From positions 2,170,001 through 2,234,000 of the forward strand of contig CM039004.1 of the NCBI GenBank assembly GCA_017499595.2: 64,000 nucleotides of DNA, read 5' to 3'. Of the stretch, positions 24,043 through 49,431 are shown piece by piece (within the stretch, counting starts at the first letter, position 1; each line of letters begins with the position of its first letter). The position numbers and the translations under genes were made by a program. The stretch comes from Psilocybe cubensis. Its lineage: Eukaryota. A model generated the notes under the pieces. The model was not told the origin of the DNA, searched no databases, and saw only the letters and a list, made by a program, of their open reading frames with translations.

Positions 24043-25296
24043 ATGGTGGCCACTTGGCTCTCGACGCTCGCCTCAATAGGCATGGCAGTCGGTCCACCTC
24101 TGGTAAGCGCTTACAAATGTTGCATAACGGCCAAAACATAGAGCTACGTGGATTGAACTAATTACACAATTTGTATAGGTGTATGCCGACCAAGCCTTTT
24201 CCATCGTCAAGAAAAAGTGAGCGCATCATTCTTGAAAATAACATCCTATCCTCATTAATTCATTTTCAGAGATTCAACAGGTTTCTCGCGAGATGTTTGT
24301 GCCATACTGTCCTTATCCTCTGCTTTGTTCCCGCACACTCCTATCTCACCCCTTGTCTTCCCCCAGACTTATAGCCAATATAACACGATGCTTCTTTTGG
24401 CTCGGGTATGTACTTTAGTTCGAACTATCATTCATTTCGAGAAGTACAATGACTGTGACCCCCAGAAATCATTTCGAAATGGCATTGCTGGTCCAGTCTA
24501 TATTTATGATACTCGCACAGGTTTGGCGCTCCACCTTGGTTTACTTACATTTTAATTACTGAATAACACTTCCCAGCTGGCTCTTTTGTATATCTGTATA
24601 TTATATCGACCTCACATAAGCCCTGAAACTCTCGGCACGTCTACGCGACCACTGTCTTTTTGGCAATGGCCAACCTACACTCAATACATTGAATTTTTGG
24701 CTGGATTAATGTAAATGCAGCAAAACTATCTTTCTCAGAACCTACTATTGACGATTTCATTTTCGGCAGCCTTTGTCAAGCTATCCTATTTCTCATCTTT
24801 GGTCAATGGCCGACATTTGTTTCTATCTTGGGATTTGTCGCCCTGGGCCTGGAAAGTACACTTCCGATCCCACAGTTGATCAGGTCCGTGACATTTATAA
24901 CCTTCTAGAAGTCTATCCTCAGAATTATGTAGTAATTACCGCCAACGTTCACTTTATGGCTTTCGCATGTCAACTTTGCTTGGATGGGTTGGAGGAGACT
25001 CCTTCAAGTAAATATAATTTCGAATGGTTTTAGCTAACTGCATCTGATGCCTCCCTTCTAGAACAGTGTATTTCTTCCTACAACATACTCCCCTTCAATT
25101 CCAAGTCTGTGCTATCTTCCAGTTGTCAATCGATCTAGGTCTGCTTCTCTGTCTTCTTGCAAGCTTATCAAGCTTTACTGACTTTTATTCAGCCATCATC
25201 GGTCAACGCATAACATATGGCAACAAGCCTCCCATCTCTGCCATTCTGACCGAGGAAGATGAACTAGAGCAAGCTCTAGTACTAGGCCAAGAATGA
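24043..25296 (+). CDS. PQ-loop membrane protein (Any1/Cfs1, PQLC1-like)
   Basis: Spliced model: MAVGPPLVYADQAFSI, DSTGFSRDVCAILLIANITRCFFWLG, LGLESTLPIPQLISNY, GWVGGDSFKTVYF, PLQFQVCAIFQLSID. Ends EQALVLGQE*. Confidence 0.88.
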
Positions 25297-27902
25297 TATT
25301 ATGTTTCCCAAAGTCACAAAATACCACATTCTAAACCTTGGGGTGTTCCATAATTATTTAAATCGAGTTCTACGGGTTCCTGCGACACCACGAAAACTCA
25401 CACCGTAAACCTTCCTTATTGCTCATAGGCTCGTGAAGCTCTTATGTCCGGCAAGGGAATGGAATGGCGCGGGTTCACTCTGACGCGGGTCAGGGTCGCC
25501 GTTTCCCACCTCAAGGTTTACGTATATCCATGTATAGCATGAAAACGAGATGGTTTTCCCCCTTGAGAGTAATCAGCCGCTGAAGGGTCTTTTTCTAACG
25601 ATCGCCTCCCGAGTATTTGGGGTGCATATGTAGCAAGTCTCTCGGCACTGGACCAGAGTCCAACGAATATGGCGCTCCTTATTCCTCCAGCCTTCGAGGC
25701 TTCCACGCTTCTGTTTTTGACGTACAGTAACGCATTACCGACGCTACTCAGGCCGTGTTGCCGTGAACAGCGACGGCAGCTTCGCTTTCCCGGATGGCTT
25801 CGTCTACTCTCGTTGTCGTCAAGTTTTCTATATTGGAACCTCACAGTAAAAAGTCTGAGTGCTAAGAATATTCAAAGTCCCGACCCCAGATGACAAGAGA
25901 GACCGACGTTTTTATGCATTCCAAACTGATTGGCGATCGTCAGGTCACTAATAACTGAGGGCATGAGTCTTCGTTGGTCCGTGATGGTTTTTGAAAACTA
26001 ATCATGGCTTCACAGTCTAAGATCCATTCTCGGTAGACTAATCAAAGGATTAGAAAAAAACTTTCTCGGCTATGTCGTCCACCACCACCTATCAAGGTGT
26101 TCCAAACTTGCCTTGATGTCTCTACCGCCACTGCCAAATTACTTGAAGGGACTGTAAGCAATAGAGTCTTTGAACTCCACAGAATGTATCCAAGAAAGGA
26201 CAATGAAGCAGAGTATGTCTATTACAATACCAATTATTCTGCAAGAGTCGCTGAGAACAAATCCAGGGGAGTAATCAGAGCACCAATAGCATTGTATCAT
26301 GGCATATTAGTTTAACAAAACGCATAGGTTGAGACTTATGCGTCTCTGAAGGGCCCAGTCACACTCACCACCCATCCTCTAGTACTCAAGGTTGATGTCA
26401 TCATGCCAGAATATACTCATTATCGAAAAAATTACACAACTACCGATAAGCAAATGACCTCCACTTGGCAGTCTCTATGAGACGGATACATTTGGGACAT
26501 GTCGAGTCTCTACTAACAAGCTATAACACCTCCTGTTTACGGTGGAACCAAATGGAGTTAATATCGTGTTATTTTTAGATTGTGTCTTCACCTGCCACAG
26601 ACCGCTGAACTCGAGATCAAGTGCAAGTACCCATGTGTGAAGAAAAGCACATGAATATTAAATATTGTGATATTAATTCAATGTGAGATTTAGCCTCATT
26701 GGTTATGTTATGTTAGGGTAGGATAGGGGGCGGGATAGCCTTAATGGAGTGAAAAGGAATCATACTCAGGCGAGGTGGTAAGAGATGTCCATTGGTCCAC
26801 GGTGTCCCGCGAACAATGGCTAAGAAGGGGAAGAGTTTGTGGCTCTTTTATCTCCAGAGAGTACATTCCCATGGTTGGCAGGGAAGCCAACCCAGCATAT
26901 CCGTCGAACAGACAAGTGAACCAGTACTAGCGCTCACACCCGTGAATATAACAGAGGTTTTTCTGTCATAGTATGGTATTGAGCCAATTTTAACTCGATC
27001 CAGCTTATTGGCTCAAATAGAAGTCTCCTGGCCTCACTAGACCTGCATTAAATTCAGGTCTGAATGCTTATTGAAGAGTATCGACCCAATTGTAAGCTTC
27101 AAGCATACCGTGCCATCTTGATTTTGCTTAAGCCGAATACCATTAGGTTTTCAGCAAGCATAGGCAGTAGTGAGAACTGAGCCTGGGAATTGCACAATTC
27201 CAGTCTGCAGTAAATGCGCTTCCTGTTTGACGACGACAATTTAGACGAGTCTAGGTTTGTAGGACCGCTATTGACTGCGGTAACTTGGTATCACGAGAGA
27301 GTCTGCAATGCACAATATGCGATAAAAGATATAACTCTAAATGTTTGTCAGTAACTGGAAAGAGAGTAGAAACAATGAGTCAACGGGAGTGCTCGCGTAC
27401 TATGCTTGGTATTGGAGGAGGTATTGAAGGAAGTTCTCCGGAAATAGGTATTCAAAAAGCAAGGCTTGATCGTCCTTCTATTAAAATGCTAAATTTAGGT
27501 TTTTAATGAGAGGCATGCAACATCTACAGCATAAAATTGAACTGAGAAATGCGTTATGATTAGCTACGTCAAGCTACGTTGCTGAATCTGTAGGGATCTG
27601 GATTATAACATAGGGGTAGAATTTTGGGGATGGAACCCAGCAGAAATGAATATCGCGGCTCATGTAACGGATTATGTATGTATAGGACTAGTTACCCACT
27701 CGGTTGCAAGCGTTTGAAAAAATGACGTGCGCTTGTGTAAATAATTTGAAGAAGAAAGCCAACGCGCGTGGTTTTTGGCAGTGAACAATGTGGCTGTGTT
27801 TCAGGGATGGTGTTGAGTAAATAGCCGCAAACAGGAGTTATACCTTCATCCCAACCAGCGCGCAGTCCGTAGCGTCCTCTAGGACCTCTTAGCTCTCTCA
27901 TT

Positions 27903-30900
27903 ATGGCTGCAGTCGACACCTCAAAACCGATTGCGTTCTGCGAACATCTACAACTCTCAAGTTTGGGCATCCAGCCCGCCTCAATATCCTTCCAGGTGCG
28001 TTGACGCGACACCTTCTTTCGCTTGCGTGTACTCAGTGCCAACTCATGTCTCCGCTTAACAACATCCTAGGTTAGTTCTTTGGTATACACATCATATCAT
28101 ATACTGACTATATCTACAGACTCTGACATTAGAGTCTGATCAATATATCTGTATACGCGAAAAAGTTAACGAACAAGGGCAAGTCGTCATCGTAGACCTG
28201 TCCGATGCCAACAATGTTCTTCGTCGGCCCATTTCTGCTGACTCTGCAATTATGCATCCAAGGCAAAAGATTTTGGCATTGAAAGGCACGCGCATATAAC
28301 TTTAACTCATTCTTTGTCACTAACAACGATAACAGCTCAACGCACACTACAGATCTTCGACATTGACAAGAAGCAAAAGGTCAAATCTCATATCAACAAC
28401 GAGGACATCGTATTCTGGAAATGGGTGTCAGATACAACTATTGGGATGGTGACGGAGACCGCCGTATATCACTGGACAATCGCAGACGCGACCTCGCCTC
28501 CTCAAAAAATCTTCGACCGACATCCCACACTTGCTGGCTCACAGATCATCAATTATCGCGTGACACCAGACGAGAAATGGCTGGTCCTTGTTGGTATCTC
28601 TGGCAATACCACTAACCCCTCTGCATTCAAAATAAAGGGCTCGATGCAACTCTACAGCAGAGAACGTGGTGTCAGTCAACCCATTGAAGGTCACGCTGCA
28701 GCATTTGCAGAATTGAAGTTGGACGGACACCAGAAACCCACCAAGTTGTTCACATTTGCTGTCAGGACAGCAACAGGTGCCAAGGTGTGTAAGTTCAGTC
28801 ACAACGTCATACAGAGGTTAATGTGATCTTGCGTAGCTTCATGTCGTCGAAATTGACCACCAACCCCCTGATGCTCCATTCACTAAGAAAGCTGTTGATG
28901 TTTACTTCCCCCCTGAAGCAACCAGCGATTTCCCTGTAGCGATGCAGGTCTCTAAGAAACATGGTATTGTCTACCTCGTCACCAAGTTCGGTTTTATCCA
29001 TCTGTACGACCTCGAGTCCGGTGCTTGTGTTTACATGAACAGAATTTCTGGGGAAACCATTTTCGTCACTGCTGAGCACGAGGCGACAAATGGTATCATC
29101 GGTGTTAACAAGAAAGGTCAGGTCCTGAGTGTCAACGTGGACGAGCAAACCATCATCCCTTATATCTTGACAACTCTCAACAACACCGACCTTGCATTCA
29201 AGCTTGCCAGCCGCGGCAATCTTCCTGGCGCTGATGATTTGTATGTCAAGCAATACCAGCAACTTTTCCAATCTGGTCAATTCGGTGAGGCAGCCAAAGT
29301 TGCTGCAAACTCGCCGAGAGTGAGTACATCTTAATCAAATTACACCATTCTGCGTTTTAACATTTCTGAGTAGGGGATCCTGCGAACCACCGCTGTTATT
29401 GAGTCGTTCAAGCAAGCACCTGCTCCTCCTGGTGGTCTTTCTCCTATCCTCCAATACTTCGGTATTCTCCTCGAGAAGGGAGAACTTAACCACCTAGAGT
29501 CTCTTGAACTTGCTCGACCGGTTTTGCAACAAGGAAGGAAGCAACTCTTGGAGAAGTGGTTGAAGGAGAACAAGGTACTGAGTCTTATAATCATGGATGG
29601 TGCTTTATATTAATCCGCCTTGTAGCTGACATGCAGCGAAGAGCTCGGTGATATTGTTCGTCTGCACGACATGACCTTAGCCCTCAGTGTCTACCTTCGT
29701 GCCAACGTCCCCAACAAGGTCATCGCGTGCTTCGCCGAGACTGGCCAAACGGACAAAATTTTGTTGTACGCCAAAAAAGTCGGTTATACTCCCGACTACG
29801 TACAACTTCTGCAGCACATCATGCGTACCAACCCTGAGAAAGGTGCCGAATTCGCTGCCCAGCTCGCGAACGACGAGAGCGGGCCCCTGGTCGACATTGA
29901 ACGTGTGGTTGATATTTTCATGTCGCAAAATATGATCCAGCCTGCAACATCCTTCTTGCTTGATGCTTTGAAGGACAACAAGCCTGAGCAAGGACACCTG
30001 CAGACACGTCTTCTCGAACTCAACCTTGTCCATGCTCCGCAGGTCGCAGATGCCATTCTTGGTAACGAGATGTTTACTCATTATGATCGTCCAAGAATTG
30101 CGAACCTATGCGAAAAGGCCGGTCTGCTGCAGCGTGTGCGTATAATTAATTATATTTGTTCTTTATTGGTATATCTAATATATGACTAGGCCCTTGAACA
30201 TTACGAAGACATCGCCGACATCAAGCGTGCCATTGTCCACACGACTGGACTCACTCCTGATGTGATTATTATTCAAATTATACGCAACATTGCTCATTCT
30301 AAAGTCTTGTTTATTCTAGTGGTTGGTCAACTATTTCAGCCGTCTGACAACCGAGCAATCGATGATTTGCTTGCAAGAGATGCTCCGTGTTAACATCCGC
30401 CAGAATCTCCAAGTCGTCATCCAAATTGCCACCAAGTACTCAGACATCTTGGGCCCCATCAAACTTATTGAAATGTTCGAGAGCTTCAAGACCTTCGAGG
30501 GTCTATACTACTACCTGGGATCCATCGTCAACCTCAGCGAAGATCCCGAGGTCCACTTCAAATACATCCAGGCCGCCACGCGGACTGGTCAGATTCGTGA
30601 AGTCGAGCGTATTTGCAGAGAGAGTAACTTCTACAACCCTGAGAAGGTCAAGAACTTCCTCAAGGAAGCCAAGCTTGCGGACCAACTGCCTCTCATTATC
30701 GTTTGCGACCGATTCGACTTTGTCCATGACCTTGTTTTGTACTTGTATCAGAACAATCTGACCAAGTTTATCGAGGTCTATGTCCAGCGCGTCAATTCTG
30801 TGCGCACTCCTCAAGTCGTCGGTGGTCTGTTGGATGTCGATTGCGATGAAGCGACGATCAAGAGTCTGTTAAGCTCTGTCTCTGGCAACTTCCCTATTGA

Positions 30901-46568: not shown

Positions 46569-49431
46569 TCACTCAGACAAATGCGTCAACGGATCCACAC
46601 ATATAATCCCATCCCTCTCACTCCACGGATACCCCCACCGATGCAACCACTCCCTGACACCCGTCGCGAGCCGCGCGCGCGATGCTCCCCGCGCGATGTC
46701 CTGTGTGCCTGTGTGTTTTTCTTCGCCTACTATTGCGTATGCTGGGTATGGGGATGAGTGGAGATTAGAATGGATTAGATGTTATGTGAGATGGAGAGAG
46801 GGAGGGAGAGGGACGAACCTAGACCGTAGAAATGTTCACTCTCAAGCTACACAAAGTAAACCACAATGAGCACAAAACCAAACTAAAGAGAGAGAAAGAC
46901 AAACAGCAAGCAAAAACTTTTCCAACACCTCTGTGGCCTCATTCGCATGGAGCCCATGAAGATCCAACATCGCCTCCGTCCTCTCCTCCGCACTCTCCCC
47001 CGCTCCCGCACCAACACCCACCAACGCCGCCGCACTCGCAACCCCCAACACAACCCCCAACCCCCCACCACACGCCTTCCCCCTGGCGCCCCTATCCCCC
47101 GGATCATCCGACCACGCCGCATCCCTGCTCCTCACCGCCCTCTCCGCGACCCTCGCGCGCTCCCTCACAAGCCCATCCACCGCCTCCCTCATCTCCACCG
47201 CCATCTTCCCATTCATCTCATGCCCCTCCCTACTAAACCGCTTCGCCGCCGCACCGTCTCCCCTCCGCCACGCATCAGCCGCTCTCGACAGACACGCGTT
47301 GCGCGCGGCGCCCAGCTGTAACGCGCGTTGTCGGTAGGCCATGTACATCGTGTTGACTGCGTCCCCGGTTGGTAGTGTCGGGAGCAAGAAGGGTGGATGG
47401 AGTTTGAGCCGCGGCGACGCGCGCGGCGCGACGATCGCGCTCTGATGGTGTAAATTATCAGCTGCTGTGCCCATCGCCTCCCGCCGCGCGGCTGCGGATA
47501 GATGATGATGACTATTGATACTCGCATTAATTCCATTTCCATTTCCATTCCCATTCGTCTCTTCCTGTCCTCCTATAGCTTGCTGAGCCGGTTTCTTGAC
47601 GGCAGCTGCGAACCGCGTACGACTCGGATCCGCATTATACGGCACAAACTTGCGTCCAGGCGCCCCCCCTCGCCCCGCACCATTCGCATCATACCCAAGC
47701 ACAGGGAACTCATCCACAGGCGGACCAGCCGGCTGCTGCTGCTGCTGATATTGCGCGGCAAAGGGCCCTGTACCCGGAGGGACATTCGCCTTGCTGAGCA
47801 CAGCATTCAAACTGGCTATATCGACATCTTTCGGCAAATGATGCAAAAACTCGCAGCTCTCCTGTTTAGCACACGTTCCGCGGAGCCAAAACCTACACAA
47901 CGCGCGTTCCAAGTCATGACTACAAAGAGGTCAGTATGAGGATAAAGAAAAGGAGAGAGACATGCCTGAAACGACAGTCCGCGCGCAGACATTCGCCGCC
48001 GACAAAGTACCTGCAGACCCTGTTACCTCCAGGGACAGGGCGTCCATTGACATAGCGCGGCGCAGGCCTCGCAGCTTGATTAAACGGAGCAGCACCCCCA
48101 CGCCCGCGCGCAGAGGCAGTAGCAGCATCCCTCGAGACAAGCGTAACACCCGCGCCCATGCGCTGCATACGTGCCTGCGGGGCAGGCGCAGCCGGGAGCG
48201 CACGGTCGACAAGCCACGCCATCGCGCGGTCAAAGTCGAATCCGTTGGCAGCGAGAGCGTCTTCGAGCTCTGACGGCGCAAGCGTCGATCCAAAGACGGA
48301 GCTGAGGACGTCAAAGGGCGTCATGCCATCGGTGAGGGCGGCAGAGGCCTCTTCGGACTCTGGCTCCGGGACATACTCTTGCGGGTAAAATACGCTCGGA
48401 TAGGACAGATCGGCAGAGTTTTGCCACGAGTTTGAGTCAAAGGTGTCGAAATCTGATATGGTGATGGAGTGAAAGGTTGGGATGGGGTTTGTAGAAAAGG
48501 GATCAAAGGGATCGTCCTCTTCATCGTCGTCCTTTGGACGGTGGGAGGAGCGGAGAGAAGAGGAAGGAGTGAAAGAGTGAGACTGGTCTGCGATGAGAGG
48601 GGCAGCGATGGCTAGATTTGAAGTTGCCCTGGGTGAATTGTGGGCCCACAAATCAGGAGAAGGGGTATCTGCACGCAAGAGGGATGCTGCTGAAGAGTGG
48701 GAAGCTGCTGCTGAGAGAGGACGAGGAATGGGCCTGAATTCGTTTGCCTTGGCATTGAGAAGACGGGGGGAAGAGATTGGTGATGCCGGGAGGGACGCGG
48801 TGAACTGGGTAGGTGGTGCCTGGGCATAGGTGAGAACGGGAGAAGATGAAGGAGAGTAGTCAGACTTGGAGGACATGGGAGCAAGGGGCGAGTTTGGAGG
48901 GCGGCGGAATATATTAATAAGAGGTGAAGTTGGAGCGGAGATGGGAGTTTCTGGGCGAAGCCTGTTGGAGGTGGTGGATGCGCGAGAGGAAGGGCGGGAG
49001 ATGGGACGACGAGTAGGGGTGAGAAAGAGAAAGGGAACACCAGCTACATCGTCCCTGTGCTTGTGCATGAGATCCAAGACACAATGCTCTACCTGGAATG
49101 CAAGTGAGTGGGAGGACATCGGGGGGAAAGAAAGAGGACATACACTGTGGTCGTCGACACCAAAGGCGGCCTTGAGGAGAGACTTGAGGTCGTCCTCGCG
49201 CTCGTCGATGAGGAGAGAGATGACCTGGTTGAGGAGACGAGGGGGCACTCTGTCGTTGTCGTCGTCGTCGTAGGGATCGAGGGGCTTGAACTGGCGGGCG
49301 AGAGCAGCGAGCTGGGCGCGAGTGTGGGGGAACTTTGGGGCAGGATTGTCATTGGGGAGACTGGGCTTTGGAGCATAGGGAGCGTTAGTACTGAGGGGAT
49401 CGTAGGGGGGATGGTAGGCAGCGGTGGCCAT
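46569..49431 (-). CDS. CCCH zinc-finger and Smr-domain protein with PAM2 motif and CUE/UBA-like domain
   Basis: LNAKANEFRP (PAM2); ELEDALAANGFDFDRAMAWLV (CUE/UBA-like); CRYFVGGECLRADCRFSH and CRFWLRGTCAKQESCEFLH (2x CCCH); RAADAWRRGDGAAAKRFSREG (DUF1771-like); LDLHGLHANEA and AYAIVGEEKHT (Smr). Confidence 0.88.

Follow-up and report, generated by a model that had tools for sequence, protein, structure and literature searches.

A probable pair of abutting introns with a zero-nucleotide exon in a fungal clathrin heavy-chain gene

The usual explanation of recursive splicing is that it serves to handle very long animal introns. The ratchet points of Drosophila and vertebrates lie in host introns of tens of kilobases and rely on exon-definition features.

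Several fungal introns have also been described in which one splicing unit directly follows another. The BOT1 gene of Cryptococcus neoformans carries a 375-nt intron composed of 210- and 165-nt parts that meet at a zero-nucleotide pivot, as documented by profiling of junctions, branches, and 3′ ends (Burke et al., 10.1101/224170). Two zero-length-exon cases are described for Schizosaccharomyces pombe, including the 336-nt intron of SPNCRNA.445 (Chen et al., 10.1101/226894), and the account of Candida and Debaryomyces describes how the snoRNA-bearing introns of host transcripts are separated by exons of zero or one base (Donovan et al., PMC5033589). Stwintrons of Pezizomycotina and Lipomyces consist of two U2 introns that are removed by consecutive reactions. 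As their authors describe them, the outer intron has its donor, branch site, or acceptor split by the inner one, which forces the order of removal, and “abutting U2 introns excised by recursive splicing” are listed as a distinct known type (PMC7138796, PMC6616335).

A sequence-only reading of the locus studied here had set it against ratchets in long animal introns and ascomycete stwintrons. This background was incomplete, as zero-nucleotide exons are documented in BOT1, S. pombe, and Candida/Debaryomyces in the accounts cited above. We found no report of recursive splicing in Agaricomycetes in the main texts of the open-access literature, and an open-access keyword search for basidiomycetes returned only a paper on ascomycete Candida yeasts. 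Likewise, the open-access literature yielded no further Cryptococcus case and nothing relevant on tandem, abutting, or contiguous introns.

Here we report that positions 27996 to 28119 of a 64-kb stretch of DNA (the entire sequence analyzed, hereafter called the window) probably hold two complete U2-type introns of 75 and 49 nt, which abut with a zero-nucleotide exon between them and would be removed by two reactions. Abutting introns removed in two steps had been proposed in the earlier reading. The arrangement has now gained comparative support from the AG|GT at its center, which all 21 distinct long introns among the orthologues share; use of the inner sites, and hence two-step removal, is what we infer from these sequences.

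The clathrin heavy-chain gene and its first intron

When spliced, the gene model encodes a 1680-aa protein in which Pfam detects Clathrin_propel in exon 3 (E = 1.5e-07) and Clathrin in exon 8 (E = 1.1e-44), which identify it as a clathrin heavy chain. The sequence and spliced RNA contigs together establish 27996–28119 (plus strand, as are all features of this gene given below) as its 124-nt, phase-0 intron 1. The coding part of exon 1 (27903–27995) comprises 31 codons and ends in TTCCAG, whereas exon 2 (28120–28285) begins with ACTCTGACA and encodes TLTLESD.... Translation proceeds across intron 1 without a gap, and the pivot adds no residue.

The whole segment is absent from mature RNA. Contigs from runs X1 and X2, which begin at 27868 and 27881, stop at the end of exon 1 and skip all 124 nt, with a 3-nt CAG ambiguity at the joint. 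The 12 remaining introns of the gene, each of 50 to 58 nt, are likewise skipped, in agreement with the initial observation that all 124 nt are removed and that this is about twice the length of the other introns. We take X1 and X2 to be RNA because their contigs are spliced (no run is on record as RNA), and contigs from runs X3 and X4 represent unspliced DNA. This evidence consists of assembled Logan contigs, a form that drops rare transcripts, and a form retaining one unit is absent among the assembled X1 and X2 contigs, from which rare forms drop out.

The segment divides as the sequence-only reading had described. Unit 1 (27996–28070, 75 nt) has the donor GTGCGT, a branch-like TTAAC inside GCTTAAC, and the acceptor CCTAG; its candidate branch A at 28059, identified by motif only, lies 11 nt from the 3′ end of the unit. 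Unit 2 (28071–28119, 49 nt) has the donor GTTAGT, a branch-like CTGAC inside ACTGAC, and the acceptor TACAG, and its candidate branch A at 28107 (again by motif only) lies 12 nt from its 3′ end. At the pivot AG|GT (28069–28072), the unit 1 acceptor abuts the unit 2 donor between 28070 and 28071 (TAG|GTTAGT), leaving a zero-nucleotide exon. Donor and acceptor score at the 54th and 46th percentiles of true sites for unit 1 and at the 51st and 77th percentiles for unit 2. Removal of unit 1 recreates CAG|GTTAGT, as had been pointed out from the sequence, and this donor falls at the 59th percentile of the true donors of the window when scored with a matrix whose exon positions are coding-biased.

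A conserved element, GACGCGAC, is located just 3′ of the first donor (28003–28010). Of 43 distinct orthologous copies of intron 1, 10 contain an exact match within 25 nt of their 5′ end, that of locus L010 with its short intron (see below) among them, and the element is not enriched across the window (3 matches versus 1.48 expected). In the syntenic upstream gene at about 24050–25290, introns read by eye appear to be 49 to 73 nt only.

In the host, assumed from its intron style to be a mushroom-forming fungus, introns would be recognized across the intron, and nearly all are 45 to 75 nt, such that each unit would be recognized separately. If unit 1 were to leave first, exon 1 would be joined to GTTAGT, and the recreated donor would serve the second step. 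If unit 2 were to leave first, the acceptor of unit 1 would then adjoin exon 2. Either order would give an identical mRNA. Once the spliceosome is committed to the inner sites, a mutation or indel in AG|GT would cause intron sequence to be retained in the mRNA, with loss of the reading frame. We propose that the AG|GT is frozen while the remainder of the intron drifts because changes to the inner sites would break the frame.

Conservation of the internal AG|GT

Within this one sequence, the double-unit pattern is not clearly above chance, and the weight of the argument lies with the orthologues. When the interior of the window intron is shuffled, 7% of trials produce a central AGGT flanked on both sides by 44 nt or more, and a double-unit motif scan of the whole 64 kb gave 6 matches compared to a mean of 6.7 in 20 shuffles, which is no excess. 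The sole other ORF-flanked double-unit match (46742–46904, minus strand) is read, from the frame only, as two introns flanking a 28-nt exon. An ORF-flanked search for long introns in the window was too noisy to be usable.

We therefore compared 80 orthologous metagenome loci, among which intron 1 is readable in 48 in addition to the window. Four incomplete contigs contribute L023, plus L006 and L017 as partial introns, and L012 is identical to L013. One cDNA-like contig (L021) matches L029 at 90–94% and is without the 124-nt intron of L029; a same-species genomic partner for its intron 1 was not found.

A single central AGGT occurs in all 24 rows with an intron 1 of 105 to 150 nt (21 distinct sequences), located 49 to 85 nt from the intron start and dividing these introns into a unit 1 of 49 to 85 nt and a unit 2 of 44 to 65 nt. 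Where intron 1 is 50 to 66 nt long, AGGT is found in 3 of 24 rows, and two halves of at least 44 nt in none of the 24. AGGT is the only 4-mer common to all 21 distinct long introns (the runner-up occurs in 17), and the chance of a central AGGT upon shuffling, taken intron by intron, ranges from 0.03 to 0.2. As controls, AGGT is present in 0 of 13 rows of 80- to 106-nt introns elsewhere in the clathrin heavy-chain genes and in 15 of 225 short-intron rows.

These loci are highly diverged. The four-fold sites of exon 3 are saturated, with a median identity of 0.30 over 153 pairs among 18 loci, and clustering at a four-fold identity of at least 0.70 gives 14 clusters, taken here as at least 14 lineages (this analysis excluded three loci whose exon is 441 nt long). 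Because the four-fold sites are saturated, shared descent by itself cannot preserve four bases. Furthermore, the lengths of the units vary across orthologues, and therefore indels must be frequent, yet AG has never been parted from GT. In L029, for example, a 7-nt insertion created a consensus donor with AG still adjoining it. Conservation of the internal AG|GT across orthologues had been named as a check in the sequence-only reading, and the motif proves invariant in the long introns of at least 14 lineages.

It is very improbable that this is an ordinary long intron whose AGGT arose by chance and is common to relatives by descent. The shuffle frequency for the window intron and the lack of a double-unit excess in the window are what such a history would give. 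The 21 distinct long introns from at least 14 four-fold-saturated lineages, with diverged flanks and variable spacing, speak against it, as does the lack of AGGT in the 13 long-intron rows from elsewhere in the clathrin heavy-chain genes.

Nor does a lone splice site explain the motif. Among 216 ordinary donors in these genes, 102 are preceded by AG, and GT follows 32 of 216 ordinary acceptors; at these rates, AG|GT in 21 of 21 is not accounted for by a donor or an acceptor standing alone. The profile of the pivot in the 21 orthologues includes, besides the invariant AG and GT, a pyrimidine at −3 (19/21), a pyrimidine-rich tract from −18 to −6, and G at +5 (11/21). A YTNAY branch-like motif lies 6 to 40 nt from the 3′ end in 20 of 21 copies of unit 1 and in 19 of 21 copies of unit 2, compared to 190 of 215 true introns. 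These comparisons show that both internal splice sites are under selection: the AG|GT is invariant at saturated divergence, and a splitting AGGT is lacking in the short orthologous introns and in long introns at other positions. Locus L059, which lies outside the main clade and has weak sites, may be a chance case.

The inner donors are on average weaker than the outer ones (median 4.1 versus 6.3 bits). Only 5 of the 21 inner donors, and likewise 5 of the 21 inner acceptors, score above the 95th percentile of decoy GT and AG sites; these figures derive from position weight matrices that are poor discriminators. The inner donor is poor in several lineages, with sequences such as GTGCTT and GTATTT. 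This weakness would fit a different role for the motif, in which the segment is removed by a single reaction from 27996 to 28119 and the inner AG|GT is kept for another purpose, such as a landing site for U1 snRNP or an intronic enhancer that helps to define a longer-than-usual intron. The RNA contigs, which show the full 124-nt skip only, agree with one-reaction removal, and the 80- to 106-nt introns without an inner AGGT elsewhere in more distant relatives indicate that such lengths can be spliced in one piece. We nevertheless consider this explanation unlikely. The invariant AG would be superfluous for a U1 site alone, given that just under half of ordinary donors are preceded by AG, and such a site would need no pyrimidine at −3, upstream pyrimidine tract, or branch-like motif. 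In addition, the halves keep ordinary intron sizes, with unit 2 at 44 to 65 nt, and the apparent precise loss of unit 2 from L010 (see below) is in line with its being defined as an intron in its own right.

In 21 of 21 orthologues, the reading frame would be lost if either unit were retained. Partial products would thus be unproductive, which, together with the conserved inner sites, is compatible with a regulatory switch wherein partial splicing yields frame-broken, degraded transcripts and so tunes clathrin heavy-chain output. We regard such a switch as slightly less probable still than removal in one reaction. No partially spliced contig appears in X1 or X2 (contigs can miss rare forms), the sequence holds no pointer to a regulator, and there is no cause to expect such control in a housekeeping gene whose other 12 introns are plainly constitutive.

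Probable gain and loss of unit 2

Locus L010 has a 53-nt intron 1 that resembles unit 1. In a FastTree analysis that left out 17 rows with fewer than 450 aligned residues, the two-unit clade received a support of 0.78, and within it L010 grouped with L012 (57 + 55 nt) with a support of 0.86. These trees were built from one protein, and a tree from 149 aa was unresolved. A short intron inside the two-unit clade fits the removal of unit 2 as a module, and unit 2 seems to have been lost precisely in this lineage.

Unit 1 has its homologue in the one short intron that in-clade relatives such as L010 carry. Most likely, an ancestor of a large clade of fungi acquired unit 2 next to an older unit 1, and at least one lineage has since lost it precisely. 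Besides L010, locus L008 suggests a precise unit loss. Of the two origins put forward in the sequence-only reading, adjacent intron gain is now favored: the in-clade short introns are unit-1-like, so unit 2 would have been gained beside an existing intron. A microexon that shrank to 0 nt lacks support, as extra residues between F-Q and T-L-T are found in no orthologue.

Other origins were also considered. Tandem duplication of an intron was rejected, since the similarity between unit 1 and unit 2 is at shuffle level in 21 of 21 cases (z of −1.0 to 1.5). Duplication of the exon 1 tail together with its donor was rejected as well: the 10 nt before the pivot match the tail at a mean of 4.67 positions, versus a mean of 5.03 of 10 for other acceptors. 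L029 is an exception to this comparison, with a 14/16 match. An introner-like or repeat origin was assessed within the 64-kb window, which contains no second copy of unit 1 or unit 2 and matches of up to 14 nt only. Finally, across positions 27800–28300, Rfam gave no match at E values up to 1, and no hidden small RNA was found there.

Implications and comparison with known systems

Zero-nucleotide-exon recursive splicing has documented precedents in fungi, to which the clathrin case would add a new, very short, and deeply conserved example. The few fungal cases are 336 to 375 nt long or bear snoRNAs, whereas the clathrin intron is 124 nt and has the form of two ordinary-sized introns. Being small and open to mutation, it could serve as a model in which to study the pairing of sites across short introns by the spliceosome and the use, in turn, of overlapping 3′ and 5′ sites. 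The locus also bears on the gain and loss of neighboring introns, and it serves as a warning that such pairs are hidden from mature-mRNA evidence and from gene annotation.

More tentatively, this may be the shortest among known recursively spliced introns, an obligate, minimum-size pair that flanks a zero-nucleotide exon and has been kept by a housekeeping gene across a fungal radiation with saturated synonymous sites. Its units would behave as separate modules, with the gain of one next to an existing intron and a later, precise loss of one. We hold this broader proposal to be possible rather than probable. If it is true, some annotated “long” introns of short-intron fungi would be concatenated introns, existing intron borders would be places of intron gain, and the ceiling that intron definition sets on length would be sufficiently strict to hold such junctions frozen.

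The clathrin intron is not a stwintron in the strict sense, as the outer donor GTGCGT and the outer branch site and acceptor are intact and the units lie side by side rather than nested. A pair of snoRNA-hosting abutting introns was also rejected, given the lack of an Rfam match and units of only 49 to 75 nt. The Candida/Debaryomyces transcripts resemble it in that short fungal introns abut without an exon, with recursive splicing described there. They differ in carrying a snoRNA per intron within non-coding polycistrons, as reported, whereas the clathrin units lie in a coding gene and contain no known RNA that we could find. In S. pombe, as in the clathrin gene, a 3′ splice site directly adjoins a 5′ splice site within a fungal intron, and the account of that case describes conservation of the splice-site sequences in sister species. 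SPNCRNA.445 is presented there as a non-coding snoRNA host of an ascomycete fission yeast with a much longer intron; in the clathrin intron we found no RNA family.

Like the animal ratchet points, the clathrin pivot juxtaposes YAG|GT and would regenerate a donor after the first step, but the whole intron is 124 nt and belongs to a short-intron system. The published description of BOT1 offers several parallels: a basidiomycete protein-coding gene in which an annotated single intron is two introns that meet at a zero-nucleotide pivot and mature RNA shows the full junction only. The BOT1 intron is 375 nt and its removal was shown by profiling, whereas the clathrin intron is 124 nt, its halves are of ordinary intron size, and the evidence for it is comparative and comes from conservation in many lineages.

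The clathrin heavy-chain gene and its first intron

The plus-strand gene with an intron at 27996-28119 encodes clathrin heavy chain, because Pfam identifies Clathrin_propel in its exon 3 and Clathrin repeats in its exon 8. The coding part of exon 1 begins with the ATG at 27903 and closes at 27995 with TTCCAG, and exon 2 starts at 28120. Between them, unit 1 (27996-28070, 75 nt) reads GTGCGT ... GCTTAAC ... CCTAG and is directly abutted by unit 2 (28071-28119, 49 nt), which reads GTTAGT ... ACTGAC ... TACAG. This layout of donors, branch motifs, and acceptors matches the description in the sequence-only reading. We refer to the junction of the unit 1 acceptor and the unit 2 donor (AG|GT at 28069..28072) as the pivot.

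The stretch is present in five public sequencing runs. Contigs from runs X3 and X4 are DNA and span it without splicing, and runs X1 and X2 each provide one contig that is spliced at 13 places and are therefore RNA runs. Both RNA contigs skip exactly 124 nt at intron 1, with a placement ambiguity of 3 nt (CAG), and the joined exons of the gene model translate to a 1680-residue protein that is continuous across this site. The claim that all 124 nt must be removed is thus upheld. These RNA data are assembled contigs, which cannot show rare intermediates. The other 12 introns in the same contigs are 50, 52, 54, 51, 54, 58, 53, 58, 56, 50, 53, and 55 nt, in agreement with the earlier statement that intron 1 is roughly twice as long as the rest. 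The best placement of intron 2 (28286-28335, plus strand) makes it a GC-AG intron (GCACGC...ACAG), and both RNA contigs skip it; a GC start at this position also occurs in 3 of 30 distinct orthologous introns. The X1 contig is identical to the window, and the X2 contig carries four exonic base differences (28917, 29169, 30868, and 31027) that look like strain or allele differences.

Conservation of the pivot among orthologous introns

Within the window alone, the pattern is not beyond chance, because 7% of shuffles of the intron 1 interior place an AGGT centrally, with 44 nt or more on either side, and because double units are not in excess in the window. The whole-window scan sought two abutting units with four splice sites, each at or above the 10th percentile of true sites, and a branch-like motif in each unit; it found 6 combinations versus a mean of 6.7 in 20 shuffles. 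The suggested enrichment of YAG|GT double units was therefore not seen at the scale of the window. The only other ORF-flanked match (46742-46904, minus strand) reads by frame, independently of RNA, as introns of 58 nt and 77 nt around a 28-nt exon. The upstream gene at 24050-25290 (plus strand), which is syntenic with clathrin in many metagenome loci, has about eight short introns; read by eye, also independently of RNA, they are apparently only 49-73 nt. Nothing in the window scan or in this gene says that abutting pairs are widespread.

An exon 3 scan of metagenome contigs gave 219 matching stretches, 113 of which encode a relative, and the best 80 of these 113 were taken as orthologous loci (L001-L080). 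Exon 1 and exon 2 peptides were aligned to each locus to read intron 1. The end of exon 1 and the start of exon 2 could be read in 48 of the 80 loci, which together with the window provide 49 rows. The intron at this phase-0 site is 105-150 nt long in 24 rows (21 distinct sequences) and 50-66 nt long in another 24. The one row lacking intron 1, L021, has no other intron either and looks like a cDNA-derived contig; it matches the exons of L029 at 90-94% identity and segments of L072, L073, and L079 at 97-100%; farther upstream, these three loci do not match it. Four incomplete contigs were still readable: L012 is the same as L013, L023 has a 137-nt intron split 77 + 60, and L006 and L017 begin inside intron 1 and continue with the pivot and second units of 67 nt and 60 nt, respectively. 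Intron 1 of L046 is 57 nt. Twelve more distant loci (L063-L069, L071, L074, and L075-L077) have no intron at this site, and 15 loci fall outside the tally (L007, L024, L031, L053-L055, L057, L060, L061, L070, L072, L073, and L078-L080). Contig L060 also carries a second, degenerate clathrin N-terminal copy (1676-2245) about 1.3 kb upstream of the better one.

A single AGGT occurs in each of the 24 long rows (21 distinct); it lies 49-85 nt into the intron and divides these fully readable introns into halves of 49-85 nt and 44-65 nt. It is the sole 4-mer common to the interiors of all 21 distinct long introns, and the runner-up occurs in 17. AGGT is found in 3 of the 24 short rows, none of which yields two halves of at least 44 nt. 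At other positions in the same gene and loci, it occurs in none of 13 rows with introns of 80-106 nt and in 15 of 225 rows with short introns.

Inheritance of AGGT by shared descent does not explain this conservation. Between loci, four-fold degenerate sites in exon 3 have a median identity of 0.30 (153 pairs, 18 loci, leaving out three with a shorter exon 3), and the loci form 14 clusters at a four-fold identity of at least 0.70. Pivot flanks differ from lineage to lineage. Furthermore, both halves vary in length, and thus indels are common in intron 1, yet AG is never parted from GT in the 21 distinct long introns. A single splice site at this position does not account for AGGT either, since AG precedes ordinary donors in 102 of 216 cases in these genes and GT follows ordinary acceptors in 32 of 216.

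In a profile of the 21 sequences anchored at the pivot, Y is present at -3 in 19 and a pyrimidine-rich tract spans -18 to -6; on the other side, R is found at +3 in 16, G at +5 in 11, and T at +6 in 14. The pivot thereby has the appearance of a 3' splice site adjoining a 5' splice site. Of the 21 introns, 20 have a YTNAY motif at a distance of 6-40 nt from the 3' end of unit 1 and 19 have one at that distance from the 3' end of unit 2, versus 190 of 215 true introns. In all 21, an mRNA that retained either unit would have a broken reading frame. The proposed abutting introns hold as a layout, with AG|GT conserved in 21 of 21 sequences, and strong comparative evidence favors the proposed two-step removal of the 124-nt intron, which we consider quite probable.

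Splice-site matrices derived from 215 other introns in these genes are poor at telling true sites from decoys. With these poorly discriminating matrices, inner donors (at the pivot) have a median of 4.1 bits versus 6.3 for outer donors. Among the 21 inner donors, 5 score above the 95th percentile of decoys and 20 above the 5th percentile of true sites; the counts for the 21 inner acceptors are the same. Poor inner donors, such as GTGCTT, occur in some lineages. When exon positions are included, the inner donor scores higher once unit 1 is gone, which would favor removing unit 1 first; these positions are shaped by coding, and we therefore draw no conclusion on order. L059, which lies outside the main clade and has weak splice sites, may be a chance case of the two-unit pattern.

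History of the two units

A tree of 149 protein residues gave no resolution. In a FastTree analysis of the 64 rows that have 450 or more aligned residues (alignment of up to 969 residues; shorter rows left out), all two-unit loci except L059 fall in one clade (support 0.78) nested among single-short-intron lineages. Directly after the unit 1 donor lies GACGCGAC (window 28003-28010, plus strand), which 10 of the 43 distinct intron-1 sequences carry unchanged and which is retained at the same place in L001-L005, L009, L010, L013, and L034 despite saturated neutral sites. The window as a whole shows no enrichment of this element. About 20 nt farther on is a second semi-conserved block, TTGCGTG, followed by the branch motif. 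Candidate roles for GACGCGAC are a DNA-level regulatory site, a splicing element, or a short stem.

The exact element is also carried by the single 53-nt intron 1 of L010, which argues that unit 1 is the counterpart of the older intron. L010 groups with L012 (57 + 55 nt; support 0.86), and L008 (53 nt) is also nested. These nested short-intron loci suggest precise loss of unit 2, as would be expected if unit 2 were an intron in its own right; a microhomology deletion would, however, produce the same outcome.

No trace of the origin of unit 2 was found in unit likeness, the exon-1 tail, or copies in the window. The likeness of the two units is no greater than that of shuffles, and the window contains no further copy of either. 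Resemblance to the exon-1 tail is no stronger at the pivot than at other acceptors. The exception is L029 (2640-2763), in which the exon-1/intron border and the sequence around the pivot agree at 14 of 16 bases. Compared with the L009/L016 group, this locus carries a 7-nt insertion at the pivot; the donor still abuts AG, and the extra bases convert a weak inner donor to consensus, with the same hexamer as the L029 outer donor. A microexon shrunk to 0 nt, an option raised earlier, is unsupported, as none of the orthologues encodes additional residues there.

Comparison with known fungal cases

Zero-nucleotide exons are already documented in fungi. The 375-nt intron of C. neoformans BOT1 is reported to divide into 210 + 165 around such an exon, as shown by junctions and branches (10.1101/224170). 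Two cases are reported in S. pombe, including the 336-nt SPNCRNA.445 intron, with conservation in sister species (10.1101/226894), and size-zero exons are described between snoRNA-bearing introns in Candida and Debaryomyces (PMC5033589). Abutting U2 introns with recursive splicing are treated as a type separate from stwintrons (PMC6616335; PMC7138796). Among open-access main texts, searches for recursive splicing in Agaricomycetes, basidiomycetes, or Cryptococcus and for tandem, abutting, or contiguous introns gave no description of a comparable case. Clathrin intron 1 would be a further example of the zero-nucleotide-exon splicing known in fungi, notable for its small size, with both halves the size of ordinary introns, and for its deep conservation in a housekeeping coding gene.
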